In this document: positions 26,858 to 47,351 of the stretch, piece after piece | Layout: every line of letters begins with the position of its first letter | Numbering within the stretch: position 1 is the first letter of the stretch | Assembly: GCA_050987995.1 (NCBI GenBank) | Contig: CP158804.1 | Coordinates: forward strand, 1,030,412-1,094,411 | DNA: 64,000 bases | Source: Ralstonia pickettii | GTDB lineage: Bacteria; Pseudomonadota; Gammaproteobacteria; Burkholderiales; Burkholderiaceae | Reading direction: 5' to 3' | Program-made: the position numbers and the translations under genes | Notes under the pieces: model-generated | Told to the model about the DNA's origin: nothing | What the model saw: the letters and a program-made list of their open reading frames with translations, nothing else | Databases searched by the model: none

Positions 26858-28087
<1,230 letters not shown>

Positions 28088-28163
28088 GGTCGCCCCTGGC
28101 TCTGTCGTCGCGGACTGCACGTTAGACGGCCAGTGCCAGCCAAGGATTCCCCTGCAGGAGGCC

Positions 28164-29129
28164 TTATCCCAGCAAGAAGCTGGCAAAAGCGCCCAGGTCG
28201 ACATTGCCCCCGGATACGATGATGCCCACGCGCTTGCCCTTCACATCGAGCTTGCCCTGCAGCACCGCGGCGGCGGCCAGGCAGCCGGTAGGCTCGACTA
28301 CGATCTTCATGCGGCCGGCAAAGAACTTCATGGTTTCGACCAGCTCCGCATCCGACACGGTGACGATATCCGTCACCAGTTCGCGGATCACGGCAAAGGT
28401 GTGGTTGCCCAGGAACGGCGTCTGCGCGCCATCGGCGATGGTGCGCGGGGTGTCGATGCGCACGATTTCGCCGCTGCGCAGGCTTTGCTGGCCGTCGTTA
28501 CCGGCCTCCGGCTCCACGCCGTAGACCGCGCAGCCAGGCGCCATCGCCTTCGCCGCGACCGCACAGCCCGACAGCAGCCCGCCGCCGCCCAGGCATACCA
28601 CCAGCATGTCGAGCGGACCGGTTTCCTCCAGCAATTCCTTGGCCGCCGTGCCCTGCCCGGCCATCACATGCGGATGGTCGTACGGCGGGATCAGCGTCAT
28701 GCCGCGCTCTGCGGCAATGCTCCGCCCCAGCGCCTCGCGGTCATCCTTGTAGCGGTCGAACAGTACCACCTCGGCACCATAGCCGCGCGTGGCCTCGATC
28801 TTGATCGCGGGGGCGTCCTGCGGCATCACGATCACGGCCTGCACGCCCAGCAGCCGCGCCGACAGCGCAATCGCCTGCGCATGGTTGCCCGAGGAGAACG
28901 CCAGCACACCGCCCGCCTTCTGCTGCGGTGTGAACTGGGCGATGGCGTTGTAGGCGCCGCGGAACTTGAAGGCGCCGATGCGCTGGAAGTTCTCGCACTT
29001 GAAGAAGAGTTGCGCCCCGGTGGCGGCGTCGGCGGTCGAGGAAGTCAGCACCGGGGTGCGGTGCGCGGCGTCGCGGATGCGGTCGTGGGCGGCGGCTACG
29101 TCGTTGAAGGTGATGGGCAAGGTGGTCAT
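28164..29129 (-). CDS. PLP-dependent threonine/serine dehydratase family protein (fold type II)
   Basis: From the ATG at 29129 (MTTLPITFNDVAAAHDRI…). PLP-lysine motif …CENFQRIGAFKFRGA…, then GNHAQAIA, and the glycine loop …VCLGGGGLLSG…. Confidence 0.8.
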   Translation of the reverse strand: MTTLPITFNDVAAAHDRIRDAAHRTPVLTSSTADAATGAQLFFKCENFQRIGAFKFRGAYNAIAQFTPQQKAGGVLAFSSGNHAQAIALSARLLGVQAVIVMPQDAPAIKIEATRGYGAEVVLFDRYKDDREALGRSIAAERGMTLIPPYDHPHVMAGQGTAAKELLEETGPLDMLVVCLGGGGLLSGCAVAAKAMAPGCAVYGVEPEAGNDGQQSLRSGEIVRIDTPRTIADGAQTPFLGNHTFAVIRELVTDIVTVSDAELVETMKFFAGRMKIVVEPTGCLAAAAVLQGKLDVKGKRVGIIVSGGNVDLGAFASFLLG

Positions 29130-29167
29130 GGCAGCATGGATGGCGGTTGACGCGGGGACGGGCCAGT

Positions 29168-30778
<1,611 letters not shown>

Positions 30779-30915: not shown

Positions 30916-30931
30916 TGGCACGCTCTTCGCA
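30916..30931 (+). promoter_or_regulatory. Sigma54 (-24/-12) promoter divergent from rtcR
   Basis: TGGCACGCTCTTCGCA has GG at 30917-30918 and GC at 30929-30930 (GG-N10-GC spacing), with one mismatch to TTGCA in the -12 element. Predicted TSS is about 30943. A possible IHF-like TTTCAAgcacTTA lies about 25 nt upstream. Confidence 0.55.
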
Positions 30932-31039
30932 ATATCCCTGCAGCCGGATGTCCCTCTGGCCCGCGAGCCAGGGTTCGAAACGCCCTGCTGGTGCGCCGCC
31001 GCCGAACCTGTGTTCGTCGCGACGGCGTATGCCGCCATG

Positions 31040-31205
31040 GACAGATGAAGGCGATTGGGGTGCGCGTGGTGTCTCGCCCGGGTTCGACTCCCGGGGCATC
31101 CCACACCGTTCGGTAGCTCATTGGGTAGAGCAGTCGGCTTCGGCCGACGTGTAGCGGGTTCGAATCCCGTTCGAACACTGTCCTGGTAAGACAGTTCTGT
31201 CGTGA
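31040..31205 (+). ncRNA. tRNA-like non-coding RNA (Y RNA-like / YrlA-type tRNA mimic) in the leader of the RtcR-controlled operon
   Basis: Core module 31107-31178:
- acceptor-like stem CGTTCGG/TCGAACA (6 of 7 pairs)
- D-arm GCTC-ATTGGGTA-GAGC
- the anticodon arm is replaced by a 6-bp hairpin capped with a UUCG tetraloop (GTCGGC-TTCG-GCCGAC)
- 5-nt variable loop
- canonical T-arm GCGGG-TTCGAAT-CCCGT
There is no anticodon and no encoded CCA. Further T-arm-like hairpins carrying GGTTCGA lie at 30968-30987 and 31077-31095. Confidence 0.5.
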
Positions 31206-31427
31206 AAGCAGTACCCGCCGGTGCGGGCAACGGTGGCGAAACGCCGATGCGTGGAGGCACCGAAGCCCGCCGCGCGCCGGGCCGGTCACGGTGCCGCGCG
31301 AACGGCCGGGAAGCCAGAGGGGGCCTTGCAGCAGTCCGCAACCCAACGGCGAACCCGCCCGTCCGCGTCGCGCCGCGATCCGCCCGGCGCGCGTACCCGG
31401 CGGTCATCGAAGAAGAAGGAAAAGAAA

Positions 31428-32573
31428 ATGTGGAAGCGTTATCTGGTCAAAAAGAATGAGCGTGCGCTGCTGCGGCGCGAGGGCGATTTCGTCAAGGTGC
31501 TGGAGCCGGGCGTATTCAAGGCGCTCGACCCTTTCAACCGCCTCGCGGTGGAAGCAGTGCGCATGGACGGCCCGCTGTCCGATACGGCGCTGGGCGACTA
31601 CCTGCGCAAGTCCGAGCCCGACGTGATGTCGCGTCACTTCGTGCAGATGGACCTTGGCGATGACGAAGCGGGCCTGCGTTACGAGGACAGCACGCTCGTG
31701 GAACTGCTGCCGCCCGGCACGCGCCGGCTGTACTGGCGTGGCGTGATCGATCATCGGCTGGAGCGGATCAGCCTGACCGAGGCATCGGCACTGCCGCCGG
31801 CCCTGGTGCTGCGCATGACGCAGCCGACGCTGCGCGCGCGGCCGGTGCAAGGGCTGGCCGGCGTGCTGCTGGCGCAGGTGCCGGCGTACAACGTCGGGGT
31901 GCTCAAGATCGACGGCAAGGTGGACCGCCTCCTCGAACCGGGCGTAATCGGTTTCTGGCGTTACAGCCGCGATGTGTCCGTGGAACTGGTCGACCTGCGC
32001 GTGCAGGCCGTGGAAGTGGCGGGACAGGAGATCCTGACCCGCGACAAGGTCGCGCTGCGGCTGAACCTGGCCGCGACGTGGTGCTACGTGGACGTGCTGC
32101 GCGCATGGTCCACGCTGCAAAAGCCCGCGGAACACCTGTACCGGGAGTTGCAATTCGCGCTGCGCGCGGCAGTAGGCACGCGCACGCTCGATGAACTGCT
32201 CGAGGACAAGCAGGTGATCGATACCACGGTCACGGCGCAGGTGCAAGCGCGGTTGCAAGGGACGGGGCTCGAACTGCGCAGCGTCGGTGTGAAGGACATC
32301 GTGCTGCCGGGAGACATGAAGACGATCCTGGCGCAGGTGGTGGAGGCCGATAAGGCCGCCCAGGCCAACGTGATCCGTCGCCGGGAAGAAACCGCCGCCA
32401 CCCGTTCGCTGCTGAACACGGCCAAGGTGATGGAAGAAAACCCGACCGCGCTGCGGCTGAAGGAGCTCGAGACGCTCGAACGGATCGCGGAGCGGATCGA
32501 CCGGATCTCGGTATTCGGCGGTCTCGACCAGGTGCTGAACGGGCTGGTCAGCATCAAGCCCGGCGCAACCTAG
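31428..32573 (+). CDS. SPFH (band-7 / slipin) domain protein
   Basis: From the ATG at 31428 (MWKRYLVKKNERALLRREGDFVKVLEPG…), with an AGGA RBS. Band-7 core …VALRLNLAATW…GLELRSVGVKDIVLP…, followed by a coiled-coil C-terminus. Confidence 0.75.
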   Translation: MWKRYLVKKNERALLRREGDFVKVLEPGVFKALDPFNRLAVEAVRMDGPLSDTALGDYLRKSEPDVMSRHFVQMDLGDDEAGLRYEDSTLVELLPPGTRRLYWRGVIDHRLERISLTEASALPPALVLRMTQPTLRARPVQGLAGVLLAQVPAYNVGVLKIDGKVDRLLEPGVIGFWRYSRDVSVELVDLRVQAVEVAGQEILTRDKVALRLNLAATWCYVDVLRAWSTLQKPAEHLYRELQFALRAAVGTRTLDELLEDKQVIDTTVTAQVQARLQGTGLELRSVGVKDIVLPGDMKTILAQVVEADKAAQANVIRRREETAATRSLLNTAKVMEENPTALRLKELETLERIAERIDRISVFGGLDQVLNGLVSIKPGAT

Positions 32574-33903: not shown

Positions 33904-35511
33904 TTAGATTTGGCGAGCACAATTGCCGAGCGCGGGGGCCTGCCCCGGTGACGGCAGCCGGAAGAACGCTACCACCTGGCTCAGCTCGCGCCCCTGCTCC
34001 TCCAGCGCGCGCGAGGCGATCGCCGCTTCGCTCACCAGCGCCGCATTTTGCTGCGTCACCTGGTCGATCTGCACGATCGCCTGGTTGACCTGCTCGATGC
34101 CGCGGGTCTGCTCCAGCGACGCCGTGGCGATCTCGTCAACGATACCGGTCACGCGCGCCACCGCCTGCGTCACCTCGGCCATGGTCAGGCCGGCCTCGCT
34201 CGCCAGCGCCGATCCGTCCTGCACCTGGCGCCCGGAGGCCTCGATCAGCTCCTTGATCTCCTTGGCCGCGCTGGACGAACGCTGCGCCAGCCCGCGCACC
34301 TCGCTCGCCACCACCGCAAAGCCGCGGCCCTGCTCGCCGGCACGCGCCGCTTCCACGGCCGCGTTCAGCGCCAGGATATTGGTCTGGAAGGCAATGCCCT
34401 CGATGATCCCGGTAATGTCCGCGATCTTGGCCGAACTGGCGCTGATGTCCTGCATGGTGCCGACCACGCGCTGCACCGTGCTGCTGCCACGCTGCGCCAC
34501 GTCGGCCGCGCTGCGCGCCAGTTCGCTGGCCTGGCGCGCGTTGTCGGTGTTCTGGCGCACGGTCTCGGTCAGTTCTTCCATGCTGGCCGCGGTTTGTTCC
34601 AGCGAGGCCGCCTGCTCCTCGGTGCGGCTGCTCAGGTCGGCATTGCCGCGCGCGATCCCGCTGGTGGACAGCGCGATATTGCCGCTGCTGGCGCGCACCT
34701 GCGTGACGGTGGCGGTGAGCCGCTCGTTCATCTCCCGCAGCGCCGCCAGCAGGCGGCCGGTTTCGTCGTGCCGGTCCACCTCGATACGCGCGCCCAGGTC
34801 GCCGCCGGCCACGGTATCGGCCACCTCCACGGCCCGCTGGATCGGCCGCGTGATCGCGCGCGTGATCAGCACCCCGCCGGCTGCCGCCACCGCCGCGGCC
34901 ACCAGTGAAATCAGGATCAGCAGGTTGCGCTGGCGCTGGTAGTCCGCCTCCAGCTTCTGCTCCATCTCCTTCTGCCGCGCCTTGGTGAAGTCGGCGTAGG
35001 CGTCGGTCGCCTTGATCAGCGCGGCCAGCAGGGGGCGGCACTGCTTGTCGATGCGGGATATGGCTTCCTCGACCTTGCGCTCCACGGCCAGGCCGACGAT
35101 GCCCGTTGCCACCGGGCCGTAGTCCGCCTCGACCTTCGCCACCGCTTCCACCAGCTTGCGTGCCTCTTCGCCGGCGCCGGACTGCCGCACCATTTCATTG
35201 AGCCGTGCCAGCCGCTCCTGCACGTCCTGGTGCGCGCGCAGCGCCTCGGCCTTCTCGCGCTCCAGTTCCGCCGCATCGGCGACCAGCACCAGGTTGCGCG
35301 CCGCGATCGCGCGCCGGTCCACGGCGCTGCGCACCTGCGCAGCCATCTCAGCGCGCGCGTTCAAGCCGTTGAGATAGTCGTTGAAGCCATCGGTGGCATC
35401 GCCCATCGCGTGCAGCGAAAACGCCGACACCACCAGCACCACACCCGCCAGCGTGCCGAACCCGGTCAACATCCGCGTGCGGATAGACAAACTCCTGAAA
35501 TCCATGATCAC
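33904..35511 (-). CDS. Methyl-accepting chemotaxis protein
   Basis: Two TM segments flank a periplasmic 4HB sensor region. HAMP domain, then the highly conserved MCP signalling domain (…[21 protein letters not shown]…). Confidence 0.9.
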
Positions 35512-45434: not shown

Positions 45435-47351
45435 ATGAGCTACCTGAACCCACTGCGGCTGCATTTCGCGGGCCAGTTCCAGGCCAACGTGTCGACGGTC
45501 AACAACGACCCCGGACACTTCGACAACGCTGCGTTCGAACCAAGCTACCAGAAGCTCCAGGGACCGAACATGAATCCGCCCAATGGCTGGTTCAATCCGA
45601 CCGGCGACGCCTCGTGGCGGCTGCTCGGCTGCAAGGTCACGTCCGCGTGGCTGCCGTCGGGTGCCGCCAGTCCGACCGATCCGGTCCTGCAGTACCTGGT
45701 CGCCGACTCGGACGGCCGTGTCTGCGGCAAGATGGTCGATCTCGACAGTGAACAGCAGCTGGTATCCGAAATCTGGGGCTTGCAGGTGCGGATCACCGAT
45801 TCGAAGGGCAACACGCTGCTGCGCGGCAATTTCGACCCGGCGCCGTTCCTGGACATCTGGGACCGCGCGACCGGCCAGACCTCCGGCGATGTGATCGCGG
45901 GCGCGATGTATCAGTCCGTGCTGACCAGCCTGCAATGGGCCGACGTGTCGAACTCACCGTTCCTGGCCGCGCTGCAGGCCAGCGGCGACCGGCTCTCGAT
46001 CAAGTTCAACGTGGACGGCATCAATCTCGACTACACGTCACCGCAGTTCATGTGCGGACGAATTGCCGGCACGATCGGCCCCTCCGCGCCGGGCGAGCCG
46101 AAGAGTATGGTGATCGGCCGGCAGTTCATGACCGCCGCGGCGCAGGGTGGCAACTTCTTCAAGCCGAAAGGCGGCATCAACTTCTTCGCGGCGCAGGTCG
46201 ACAGCGCGTCCAGTTCGATCTTTCTCGACCTGGGCAACGCGCTGAGCACCGGCACCCCCGGCGGCGCACTGAATGACCTCGGCGACCTGACGCTCAGTGT
46301 CGCCACCTCGGGCGGCACGCTCACACTGGGGACCATCCCGTCCGCGGGGCAGAACGGCTACTCGGGCAACACGCCCTGGTACCAGACCACCGCCGGCGTG
46401 GTGCAGTTGCCGCTGACGGCCCAACAGCTCGCCGCGGTGAAAAGTGCACCGCTGACGTTGAGCGGAAACTCGGGCATCACGATCAGCGAATGGGACAGCG
46501 GCGTGTTCGTGCGCGCGGATACGTTCGTCTACCGCGCAAGTCCCGGCGACAAGCTGCAGGTACCCGTCTACGCGATGCAATGGGGCCAGCCGATGGTCGA
46601 GGCAACGCTGAGTGTGGTGCCCGATTCATCGCAACTTCAGCCGAGCAATATGATCCATCCGCACGATGTGCCCCCGGTCGCGACACCGCTGTCCGCGTTG
46701 AGCTTCGTCGATAATACGCAGCGGCCGCAGAAGGTCACCCCCCTTTCCGACGAATTCAACGGCACGCTGGTGACGGGCCAGAACGGCGTCGCGATGCTGT
46801 CGCTCGTTACCAGCGACCCGGGCACGCCGCGCTATTTCAACCACGGCAAGGAGTATGGCCTCGACGGCCAGGTGTACGGCATTCGCATCGGTTTTGCGGA
46901 TACGGGGACCTATAGCGGGCCGGAGAACCAGTGGAACTTCATCAGCATCCTGCTATGGAGCGACTTCAGCCCCGCGCAGCCGGTCACGTGGACGTCGGTG
47001 CAACCGATCTTCCAGCAATACGCGAACCTGTATCCGGTGATGGCGCGGTTTCTCGACATGGCCGACTACAAGCAGGTGGTGGCCAATGCATCGCTGCTGT
47101 CGCTCGCATTCGGCCTCGATCCGTCGGACCCGAACTCGATGCCGGTAACACGCGACCTGTCGCCCGCCAAGCGTGCCGCGATCCAGTCGTTCCTCGCCAA
47201 TCCCCAATTCGGCACTGGCGCGCCGCCTCCCGTTGCGCGCGCGCAGGCCGCCGCGCCCGCGTCGGATGCGATGCGTCCCGCGGCGCAAGGCGGCAAGGCG
47301 GCGGCAAGCGCACGCCGGCTGGTACTGCGCGGAATCTCGCGCACCCTTTGA
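45435..47351 (+). CDS. Large conserved hypothetical protein (638 aa), co-oriented with the ebo genes
   Basis: MSYLNPLRLHFAGQFQANVSTVNNDPGHFDNAAF… No family assignment could be made by eye. An AGGAGG RBS lies upstream. Confidence 0.6.
   Translation: MSYLNPLRLHFAGQFQANVSTVNNDPGHFDNAAFEPSYQKLQGPNMNPPNGWFNPTGDASWRLLGCKVTSAWLPSGAASPTDPVLQYLVADSDGRVCGKMVDLDSEQQLVSEIWGLQVRITDSKGNTLLRGNFDPAPFLDIWDRATGQTSGDVIAGAMYQSVLTSLQWADVSNSPFLAALQASGDRLSIKFNVDGINLDYTSPQFMCGRIAGTIGPSAPGEPKSMVIGRQFMTAAAQGGNFFKPKGGINFFAAQVDSASSSIFLDLGNALSTGTPGGALNDLGDLTLSVATSGGTLTLGTIPSAGQNGYSGNTPWYQTTAGVVQLPLTAQQLAAVKSAPLTLSGNSGITISEWDSGVFVRADTFVYRASPGDKLQVPVYAMQWGQPMVEATLSVVPDSSQLQPSNMIHPHDVPPVATPLSALSFVDNTQRPQKVTPLSDEFNGTLVTGQNGVAMLSLVTSDPGTPRYFNHGKEYGLDGQVYGIRIGFADTGTYSGPENQWNFISILLWSDFSPAQPVTWTSVQPIFQQYANLYPVMARFLDMADYKQVVANASLLSLAFGLDPSDPNSMPVTRDLSPAKRAAIQSFLANPQFGTGAPPPVARAQAAAPASDAMRPAAQGGKAAASARRLVLRGISRTL

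Follow-up and report, generated by a model that had tools for sequence, protein, structure and literature searches.

Genomic context

The 64,000-nucleotide stretch of Ralstonia pickettii DNA analysed here (contig CP158804.1, positions 1,030,412 to 1,094,411; hereafter the window) carries an RNA-repair operon composed of an SPFH/Band-7 gene and a gene for the RNA ligase RtcB, with the gene for the activator RtcR transcribed divergently (Table 1). Repair operons of the RtcB/RtcR type answer tRNA damage, antibiotics and toxins. On the coding strand of the operon, ahead of the SPFH gene, lies a tRNA-shaped element of 72 nucleotides (nt) without an anticodon loop, which is the subject of this work. 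The assignment of RtcR is supported by the NCBIfam equivalog RNA_repair_RtcR (838 bits, cut-off 650). Transcription from the sigma54-type promoter would start near 30941; the cloverleaf begins approximately 165 nt into the resulting leader and ends 250 nt ahead of the SPFH start codon at 31428. Neither a sigma70-like promoter nor an intrinsic terminator was found between the sigma54-type promoter and the SPFH gene, and the tRNA-like element is therefore most simply seen as part of a leader of approximately 490 nt. The original prediction, an earlier reading of the bare sequence, had placed a tRNA mimic between a sigma54 promoter and an SPFH-rtcB operon, and this context is borne out by the promoter itself and by the Pfam Band_7 and RtcB matches.

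Table 1. Genes and RNA features of the locus, in window coordinates (aa, amino acids; bp, base pairs; MFE, minimum free energy).
Feature	Position	Strand	Remarks
RtcR, sigma54-dependent activator with CARF-type N-terminal domain	29168-30778	- (divergent)	Pfam RtcR and Sigma54_activat
Sigma54-type promoter, TGGCACGCTCTTCGC (TGGCAC-N5-TCGC)	30916-30930	+	GG 30917-18, GC 30929-30
5' leader domain	30963-31036	+	Helices 30963-30973/30983-30992 and 30993-31004/15-28, then AUGCCGCC at 31029-31036
Module 1, mini tRNA-like unit	31057-31102	+	7-bp helix GGGGUGC/GCAUCCC, 13-nt linker, T arm 31077-31095
Module 2, b7a-type tRNA-like cloverleaf	31107-31178	+	ARAGORN, Rfam tRNA, MFE fold, own covariance model
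Acceptor stem, CGUUCGG x UCGAACA	31107-31113 x 31171-31177	+	6 pairs, C1·A72 mismatch, G7·U66 wobble
D arm, GCUC / AUUGGGUA / GAGC	31116-31131	+	
Anticodon-position arm, GUCGGC / UUCG / GCCGAC	31133-31148	+	6-bp helix, tetraloop cap
Variable loop, GUGUA	31149-31153	+	5 nt
T arm, GCGGG / UUCGAAU / CCCGU	31154-31170	+	
Discriminator, C	31178	+	No CCA after it
Hairpin CUGUC/GACAG, 7-nt loop	31178-31194	+	Starts at the discriminator, abuts the acceptor stem; folds independently
3' leader domain, approximately 190 nt	31208-31403	+	GCAGUA 31208-31213, then three nested long-range helices: P-a 31215-31221/31397-31403; P-b 31274-31279/31385-31390; P-c 31294-31305/31359-31370
SPFH/Band-7 ('slipin family') protein, 381 aa	31428-32573	+	Pfam Band_7 2.5e-27
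RtcB RNA ligase, 409 aa	32633-33862	+	Pfam RtcB 9.8e-130

The tRNA-like cloverleaf

The cloverleaf is accepted as real, and far above chance, because ARAGORN, the Rfam tRNA model and the MFE fold concur. ARAGORN reported it as 'tRNA-???' with a 2-nt 'anticodon', the sole tRNA-like gene in the 64 kb. The Rfam tRNA model (RF00005) gave 45.2 bits against a gathering score of 29, with E = 2.1e-6 for both strands of the window. The MFE structure of the isolated 72 nt is the same cloverleaf, at -29.7 kcal/mol (z = -3.0), and none of 200 shuffled sequences was equally stable. The acceptor stem, D arm, T arm and 5-nt variable loop that had been folded by eye proved exact to the nucleotide. In addition, the elbow nucleotides U8, A14, G18, G19, A21, G53, U54, U55, C56, A58 and C61 are all in place.

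The anticodon arm is different. It has neither a 7-nt anticodon loop nor U33 nor a 3-nt anticodon; a UUCG tetraloop closes a 6-bp stem instead. Sequence and ARAGORN call thus agree with the earlier reading of a UUCG-capped helix that cannot decode, and with the absence of an encoded CCA. At the acceptor end, the C1·A72 mismatch and the missing CCA are accompanied by a hairpin that extends from the discriminator base onward. Judged from its sequence, the element is a tRNA-derived module that has kept the L shape and given up decoding.

Conservation across SPFH loci

Eighty loci encoding SPFH relatives were taken from one-genome-per-species contigs, with 3 kb fetched on each side; they cover Burkholderia, Paraburkholderia, Pseudomonas, Rhodocyclales, Gallionellaceae, Methylococcales, Deinococcus, Chamaesiphon and Rhodobacterales. 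By ARAGORN, most beta- and gammaproteobacterial loci have a tRNA-like gene approximately 250-330 nt 5' of the SPFH gene; in the others it lies farther upstream, and many loci have two such genes in tandem. A covariance model was built from an alignment of 37 SPFH-proximal tRNA-like units. In 73 of the 80 loci it matched a relative 5' of the SPFH homologue and on its strand, with scores of 37.9-91 bits (72 of them no lower than 61), and it scored the window copy at 79.6 bits. Among the seven loci without a match, the unit is degenerate in L023, L028, L033 and L064, absent from L061 and cut by the contig end in L009 and L072. The four degenerate loci, all from Burkholderiaceae, have lost the D arm and kept the tetraloop-capped helix and the T arm (at 2690-2760 in L023 and 2725-2792 in L028); apparently, these units are either decaying or pared down to a smaller functional core.

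Within the alignment, the D stem, G18 and the T-arm core (G52, G53, U54, U55, C56, A58, C61 and C62) do not vary, G19, A14 and A21 hardly do, and compensatory substitutions occur in the acceptor, anticodon-position and T stems. Over the whole cloverleaf, 93.9% of the cells are paired and both partners change in 15 of the 21 pairs. Covariation scored 0.509, compared with 0.163 for shuffled alignments (none of 500 reached the observed value) and at most 0.117 when the partners were slid. The original prediction had staked itself on conservation of the fold in orthologous loci, and the fold is indeed conserved there, with compensatory changes.

These data decide against a decaying tRNA pseudogene or a remnant of an integration site. 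The destroyed anticodon loop, the mismatched 1:72 pair and the lack of an encoded CCA would all suit such a remnant, but the unit occupies the same position in the 73 loci, which span Proteobacteria, Cyanobacteria and Deinococcus, and it combines compensatory changes with an invariant D arm. Decay would neither keep stems by covariation nor install special tetraloops throughout a clade. We regard this explanation as refuted by the covariation, with next to no probability left to it.

The loop at the anticodon position is the sole freely varying part of the unit, being 4-7 nt long and unconserved. Distant taxa have a canonical-looking 7-nt loop of the form CU-NNN-AA, with CAU, GAU, AAU, UAU, GUU, UGU and others as 'anticodons'; in Pseudomonas the loop ranges from 4 to 7 nt; and every Burkholderia and Paraburkholderia locus has a closing pair and a GNRA tetraloop (GAAA, GCAA or GCGA). 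The window copy is capped by C-UUCG-G, and a similar UUCG cap is found in Pararobbsia. This comparison indicates that the tetraloop cap is a clade-wide trait and not peculiar to the present genome. The 1:72 pair is unpaired in 25 of the 37 sequences, which, together with the free variation of the loop, argues that the L shape is under selection and decoding is not. The tetraloop form cleanly separates 'tRNA shape' from 'anticodon': given the UUCG cap, any function of the window copy must be independent of decoding and of anticodon-loop cleavage.

Relationship to known RNAs

A class of predicted noncoding RNA with these properties has been named b7a-tRNA (band 7-associated tRNA), described as strongly tRNA-like and encoded beside a Band-7/SPFH gene and RtcB (Wang et al. 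2018, 10.1101/312249). That paper credits the prediction to Burroughs and Aravind 2016, considers b7a-tRNA functionally redundant with YrlA, states that it had no experimental validation as of 2018, and mentions occasional swaps in which b7a-tRNA lies beside Rsr or YrlA beside Band-7. In our literature search the term b7a-tRNA matched only this paper and no later experimental test was found; searches for Cupriavidus necator rtc data and for structural work on SPFH and RtcB returned nothing relevant. The window element resembles b7a-tRNA in having a cloverleaf detectable by tRNA models, in its same-strand position immediately 5' of the Band-7/SPFH gene, in its RtcB (and RtcR) neighbourhood and in its homology to the tRNA-like elements beside other SPFH orthologues (the model matches in 73 of 80 loci), and no tested feature contradicts membership. 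By this comparison with the class description in 10.1101/312249, the element at 31107-31178 is a b7a-tRNA and as a class has already been described. What had been put forward as a new 'Ro-independent Y RNA-like element' therefore matches an RNA which, according to the 2018 paper, was predicted in 2016. The tRNA-like elements of SPFH loci have no dedicated Rfam family; they match the tRNA model.

An annotated counterpart exists in Pseudomonas aeruginosa PAO1, where PA4581.1, 'tRNA-Arg4', lies between rtcR (PA4581) and PA4582, lacks CCA, has an atypical D loop and was detected by quantitative reverse transcription PCR (PMC13637947). Its place is that of the window element, between divergent rtcR and the SPFH-rtcB cluster, and neither has an encoded CCA; the counterpart in P. 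paraeruginosa (L037) scores 81.5 bits with our covariance model. The two differ in that PA4581.1 keeps a 7-nt loop which can be read as an Arg anticodon, and is therefore annotated as a tRNA gene, whereas the UUCG tetraloop of the window copy gives no assignable anticodon. Such elements are thus labelled as tRNA genes in some genomes though they are probably non-decoding.

YrlA, the Y RNA to which the element had been likened, has its T arm first, then a closed acceptor stem-loop and then the D arm, and contains the Rsr-binding motif GNCGAAN0-1G near its 5' end; TruB and DusA modify its tRNA-like domain, and the M. smegmatis YrlA undergoes RNase P cleavage and CCA addition (PMC4201824). The window element shares with YrlA (RF02553) the mimicry of tRNA, the link to an rtcB operon under RtcR control and a dispensable anticodon loop. 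Moreover, the YrlA consensus D arm (UAGCUCA..GGUAGAGC) and T arm (GCGGGUUCGA.UCCCGC) are nearly letter-for-letter those of the window element, which makes a shared partner or origin plausible. A functional analogy with YrlA's tRNA-like domain is reasonable, and is also drawn in 10.1101/312249, but the element belongs neither to the Y RNAs nor to the YrlA modules. With the Rfam YrlA model it reached only 16.9 bits (E = 1.4; gathering score 69), over model positions 30-81, and this match is an artefact, since it joins the T arm of module 1 (31077 on) to the D arm of module 2 (to 31131); tandem tRNAs are a listed false-positive mode for YrlA searches (Chen et al. 2014, PMC4201824). The arm order of YrlA is absent, the element running from acceptor 5' strand through D arm, anticodon-position arm and T arm to acceptor 3' strand. 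The Rsr-binding motif does not occur between 30900 and 31430, where approximately 0.6 occurrences are expected by chance, and occurs 70 times on the plus strand of the window. In YrlA the ends of the RNA form a Ro-binding stem and the gene lies beside rsr, whereas the window element ends at its acceptor stem and, as had been noted originally, no Ro gene accompanies it: no TROVE/Ro domain was found in the 29 larger candidate open reading frames (ORFs) scanned across the 64 kb. These include 27 of the 32 ORFs that reach 300 aa and a G+C content at third codon positions (GC3) of 0.80; the other five are of approximately 300-330 aa. The idea of a YrlA-type Y RNA whose Ro/Rsr partner has its gene in another part of the genome could still draw on the matching D and T arms and on the swaps between b7a-tRNA and YrlA mentioned in 10.1101/312249, but the low RF02553 score across two units, the ordinary arm order, the leader free of the Rsr motif and the lack of a TROVE protein among the larger ORFs scanned largely refute it, and we hold it to be very improbable.

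Compared with a canonical elongator tRNA (RF00005), the element has the full cloverleaf, the elbow nucleotides and the 5-nt variable loop; it differs in the lack of anticodon and U33, the C1·A72 mismatch, the missing CCA, the hairpin starting at the discriminator base and the embedding in an mRNA leader. A possible analogy is offered by the vault particle, composed of the major vault protein (MVP), TEP1 with its TROVE module and vault RNA, in which a shell protein of SPFH type is combined with a small structured RNA. MVP has a Band-7-like domain. The vault particle is, however, eukaryotic, and its RNA is unrelated and not tRNA-shaped, and a shell of the bacterial SPFH protein around RNA is hypothetical. 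TROVE and vault RNA have been described elsewhere (10.1101/872010).

Association with the SPFH gene and possible function

Neighbouring RtcR and RtcB genes were sought by tblastn with the window RtcR and RtcB as queries. Both flank the SPFH gene in almost all beta- and gammaproteobacterial loci, the exceptions being L057 and L061, where both are missing, and L023, where RtcB is missing. The motif TGGC[AG][CT][AG]-N4-T[CGT]GC lies 161-208 nt 5' of the tRNA-like unit in 25 of the 27 loci checked, and a sigma54-type motif was found in nearly all RtcR-linked loci. In the loci of Deinococcus, Chamaesiphon and Rhodobacterales/Rhizobiales neither RtcR nor RtcB was detected within 3 kb, and these loci nevertheless keep tandem tRNA-like units, approximately 430-940 nt from the SPFH start. 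The ORFs of three RtcR-less loci were scanned and revealed unrelated neighbours such as CheA/CheW, Ffh and ValRS. By contrast, our covariance model finds no tRNA-like element at the second rtcB paralogue of the window (26858-28204, minus strand). The persistence of the element without RtcR and RtcB, and its absence from this paralogue, show that it is strictly tied to the SPFH gene and not to RtcB or an RtcR-controlled promoter. By the same evidence, the roles originally suggested for it, as a ligand sensed by RtcR or as a substrate of RtcB, are weakened.

Some RtcR-less loci show two further peculiarities. A third T-arm-like hairpin (e.g. GAGAUGGUUCGAUUCCAUCAUC) follows the two tRNA-like units, at approximately 2530-2560 in L063 and 2640-2670 in L067 and similarly in L074 and L078. 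The SPFH protein of these four loci is approximately 130 aa longer at its N-terminus (508-509 aa).

The SPFH protein of the window is 99% identical to a 'slipin family protein' of C. necator and gives stomatin-type matches among PDB sequences. It has no predicted transmembrane segment (hydropathy maximum 1.44) and a nearly neutral net charge. We lean towards the view that the element is an L-shaped, non-decoding RNA, made together with the operon, that would serve as partner of the SPFH oligomer in an RNA-repair ribonucleoprotein (RNP). Under this proposal, the leader of approximately 490 nt, with its two tandem tRNA-like units, would be transcribed from the RtcR/sigma54 promoter ahead of SPFH and rtcB, and because of this the RNA would be made with the repair proteins upon RtcR activation. 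It would fold into the L shape and, by analogy with YrlA, probably be recognised by tRNA-processing or tRNA-modifying enzymes. As the dedicated partner of a soluble SPFH oligomer, it may form an RNP scaffold or cofactor that handles damaged tRNA-like substrates and feeds them to RtcB where RtcB is present. The comparative pattern, with tRNA-like units that accompany SPFH even without RtcB or RtcR and flanking leader domains that accompany RtcR and sigma54, translates into testable hypotheses of binding.

Several points weigh against this proposal. Linkage between genes is not proof of a physical interaction between SPFH protein and RNA, and the domain scan of the SPFH protein revealed no recognisable RNA-binding domain, its charge and hydropathy being uninformative in this respect. 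Its AlphaFold model, for which the homologues obtained were all close ones (77-99% identical), has a mean predicted local distance difference test (pLDDT) score of 54, with values below 50 across most of residues 1-146. In P. aeruginosa the level of tRNA-Arg4 was unchanged upon strong induction of the Rtc proteins (PMC13637947), which calls for caution with a simple co-transcription model, in which the RNA is made only with the operon. Finally, membership of the b7a-tRNA class was judged by the second-hand class description in 10.1101/312249.

Alternatively, the RNA could be a tRNA decoy or sensor for anticodon nucleases, binding tRNA-targeting toxins through its tRNA body. The tetraloop form would then be an uncleavable competitive inhibitor and the form with a 7-nt loop a sacrificial substrate, whose fragment with a 2',3'-cyclic phosphate could feed back on the CARF domain of RtcR. 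There is precedent for both parts: tRNA fragments with a 2',3'-cyclic phosphate end activate RtcR, and the uncleaved tRNA-like domain of YrlA has been suggested as a competitive nuclease inhibitor (Hughes et al., PMC7790460). The fast evolution of the anticodon-position loop alone, with many 'anticodons' across taxa, is also what would be expected under conflict. On the other hand, the element stands beside SPFH genes without RtcR or RtcB within 3 kb, and this persistence in RtcR-less loci means that feedback on RtcR cannot be its core function. Furthermore, clade-wide GNRA and UUCG tetraloops look like selection for a stable cap and not like mimicry of a target loop, and no linked nuclease gene was found among the window ORFs scanned. 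We therefore consider a decoy or sensor unlikely, and keep to an RNA partner of the SPFH protein as the preferred reading.

Structure of the leader

The cloverleaf is not the only structured part of the leader. Module 1 ends 4 nt 5' of it and, in the MFE fold, has a 13-nt linker where D and anticodon arms would be and a T loop of sequence UUCGACU; it gives a weak match of the mascRNA type (22.7 bits, E = 0.05). Its T stem is 88.7% paired across loci, with compensatory changes. The closing helix is paired in 66.7% in the register of the MAFFT alignment, and most per-sequence folds recover it, which lends it qualitative cross-species support. In Pseudomonas, Chamaesiphon, Deinococcus and Rhodobacterales the slot of module 1 is occupied by a second, complete tRNA-like unit, from which we infer that the ancestral design was probably a tandem pair. 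On the other side of the cloverleaf, the stem of the hairpin at 31178-31194 varies by lineage and stays complementary (UGUCC..GGACA, UGCCC..GGCA, CGGUC..ACCG and CCAGC..GCUGG).

The two outer domains are likewise conserved as structures. In an RNAalifold analysis of 18 loci, each helix of the 5' domain is 95.6% paired, with changes on both sides at five and six pairs, respectively. The motif AUGCCGCC that follows is present in at least 90% of the sequences at every position, and no pairing partner was identified for it. A leader peptide starting at its conserved AUG (31029) was considered and rejected, given 1-nt indels just downstream (L055 compared with L059) and a conservation pattern typical of paired RNA. 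A switch in which AUGCCGCC pairs with the 3' strand of P-a (GGCGG) was also rejected, since this alternative pairing is not conserved: in Methylococcales P-a covaries to GGCUGG/CCAGCC and AUGCCGCC is unchanged. The 3' domain, which stops 12 nt short of the Shine-Dalgarno sequence AAGGA (31416-31420), begins with GCAGUA, whose positions 1-3 and 6 are found in at least 90% of the sequences. RNAalifold on 22 loci gave 92.8% of cells paired, with both-sided changes at 20 of 22 pairs and a covariation score of 0.667, compared with 0.216 after shuffling (0 of 500) and at most 0.119 when slid. No Rfam family matched the 5' or 3' domain, either in the window with E values up to 10 or in eight related loci at gathering scores. 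The tetraloop cap, the degenerate upstream mini-tRNA and the covarying 5' and 3' domains are possibly undescribed so far.

The sequence signatures of the 5' and 3' domains co-occur with the sigma54 promoter in RtcR-linked loci and are absent from RtcR-less loci. This distribution argues for a modular leader, whose tRNA-like units belong with SPFH and whose flanking domains belong with RtcR, sigma54 and RtcB. It also raises the possibility, about which we are doubtful, that a larger structured leader RNA of approximately 490 nt, of which the tRNA mimic would be only one module, has a role in cis regulation or RNP assembly, specific to RtcR-controlled repair operons. Such a composite leader might couple the state of the tRNA-like unit (processed, bound or damaged) to the expression of SPFH and RtcB.

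The arrangement of the leader also bears on a purely cis-acting explanation, according to which the unit is a processing or stability signal at which RNase P, RNase Z or RNase E cuts. Cleavage would set the 5' end and the half-life of the SPFH-rtcB mRNA, and the excised tRNA-like piece would be a by-product. The units are indeed located within the leader, in coding-strand orientation, and their distance to the start codon is fixed at 247-325 nt; other conserved structured domains occur on both flanks; and neither a sigma70-like promoter nor an intrinsic terminator separates the units from the genes. RNase P-processed cotranscripts of tRNA and mRNA are known in bacteria, for instance in the tRNA-tufB operon. 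A processing signal, however, needs the acceptor/T-arm minihelix alone, whereas here invariance across phyla extends to the D stem and several elbow nucleotides, and covariation maintains the anticodon stem, which favours a function of the whole L shape. In addition, distances of approximately 430-940 nt in RtcR-less loci show that the geometry between unit and SPFH gene is not conserved, and the frayed 1:72 pair and the hairpin at the 3' end would probably make a poor context for RNase P or RNase Z. A purely cis-acting signal thus seems quite unlikely, and an RNA partner of the SPFH protein remains the reading that we prefer.

Neighbouring genes

Among the larger window ORFs scanned, no RtcA-type match was found, in contrast to the PA4582-PA4585 cluster of P. 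aeruginosa. For a coding-like ORF of 638 aa at 45435-47351 (plus strand, GC3 0.85), Pfam gave no match at E <= 1e-5. The operon appears to stop after rtcB; the next gene encodes a convergent methyl-accepting chemotaxis protein (33904-35511, minus strand). The second RtcB paralogue lies downstream of rtcR, and between the two is a gene resembling threo-3-hydroxy-L-aspartate ammonia-lyase (28164-29336, minus strand). The region 26858-29336 is flanked by the flagellar genes fliM and fliP.

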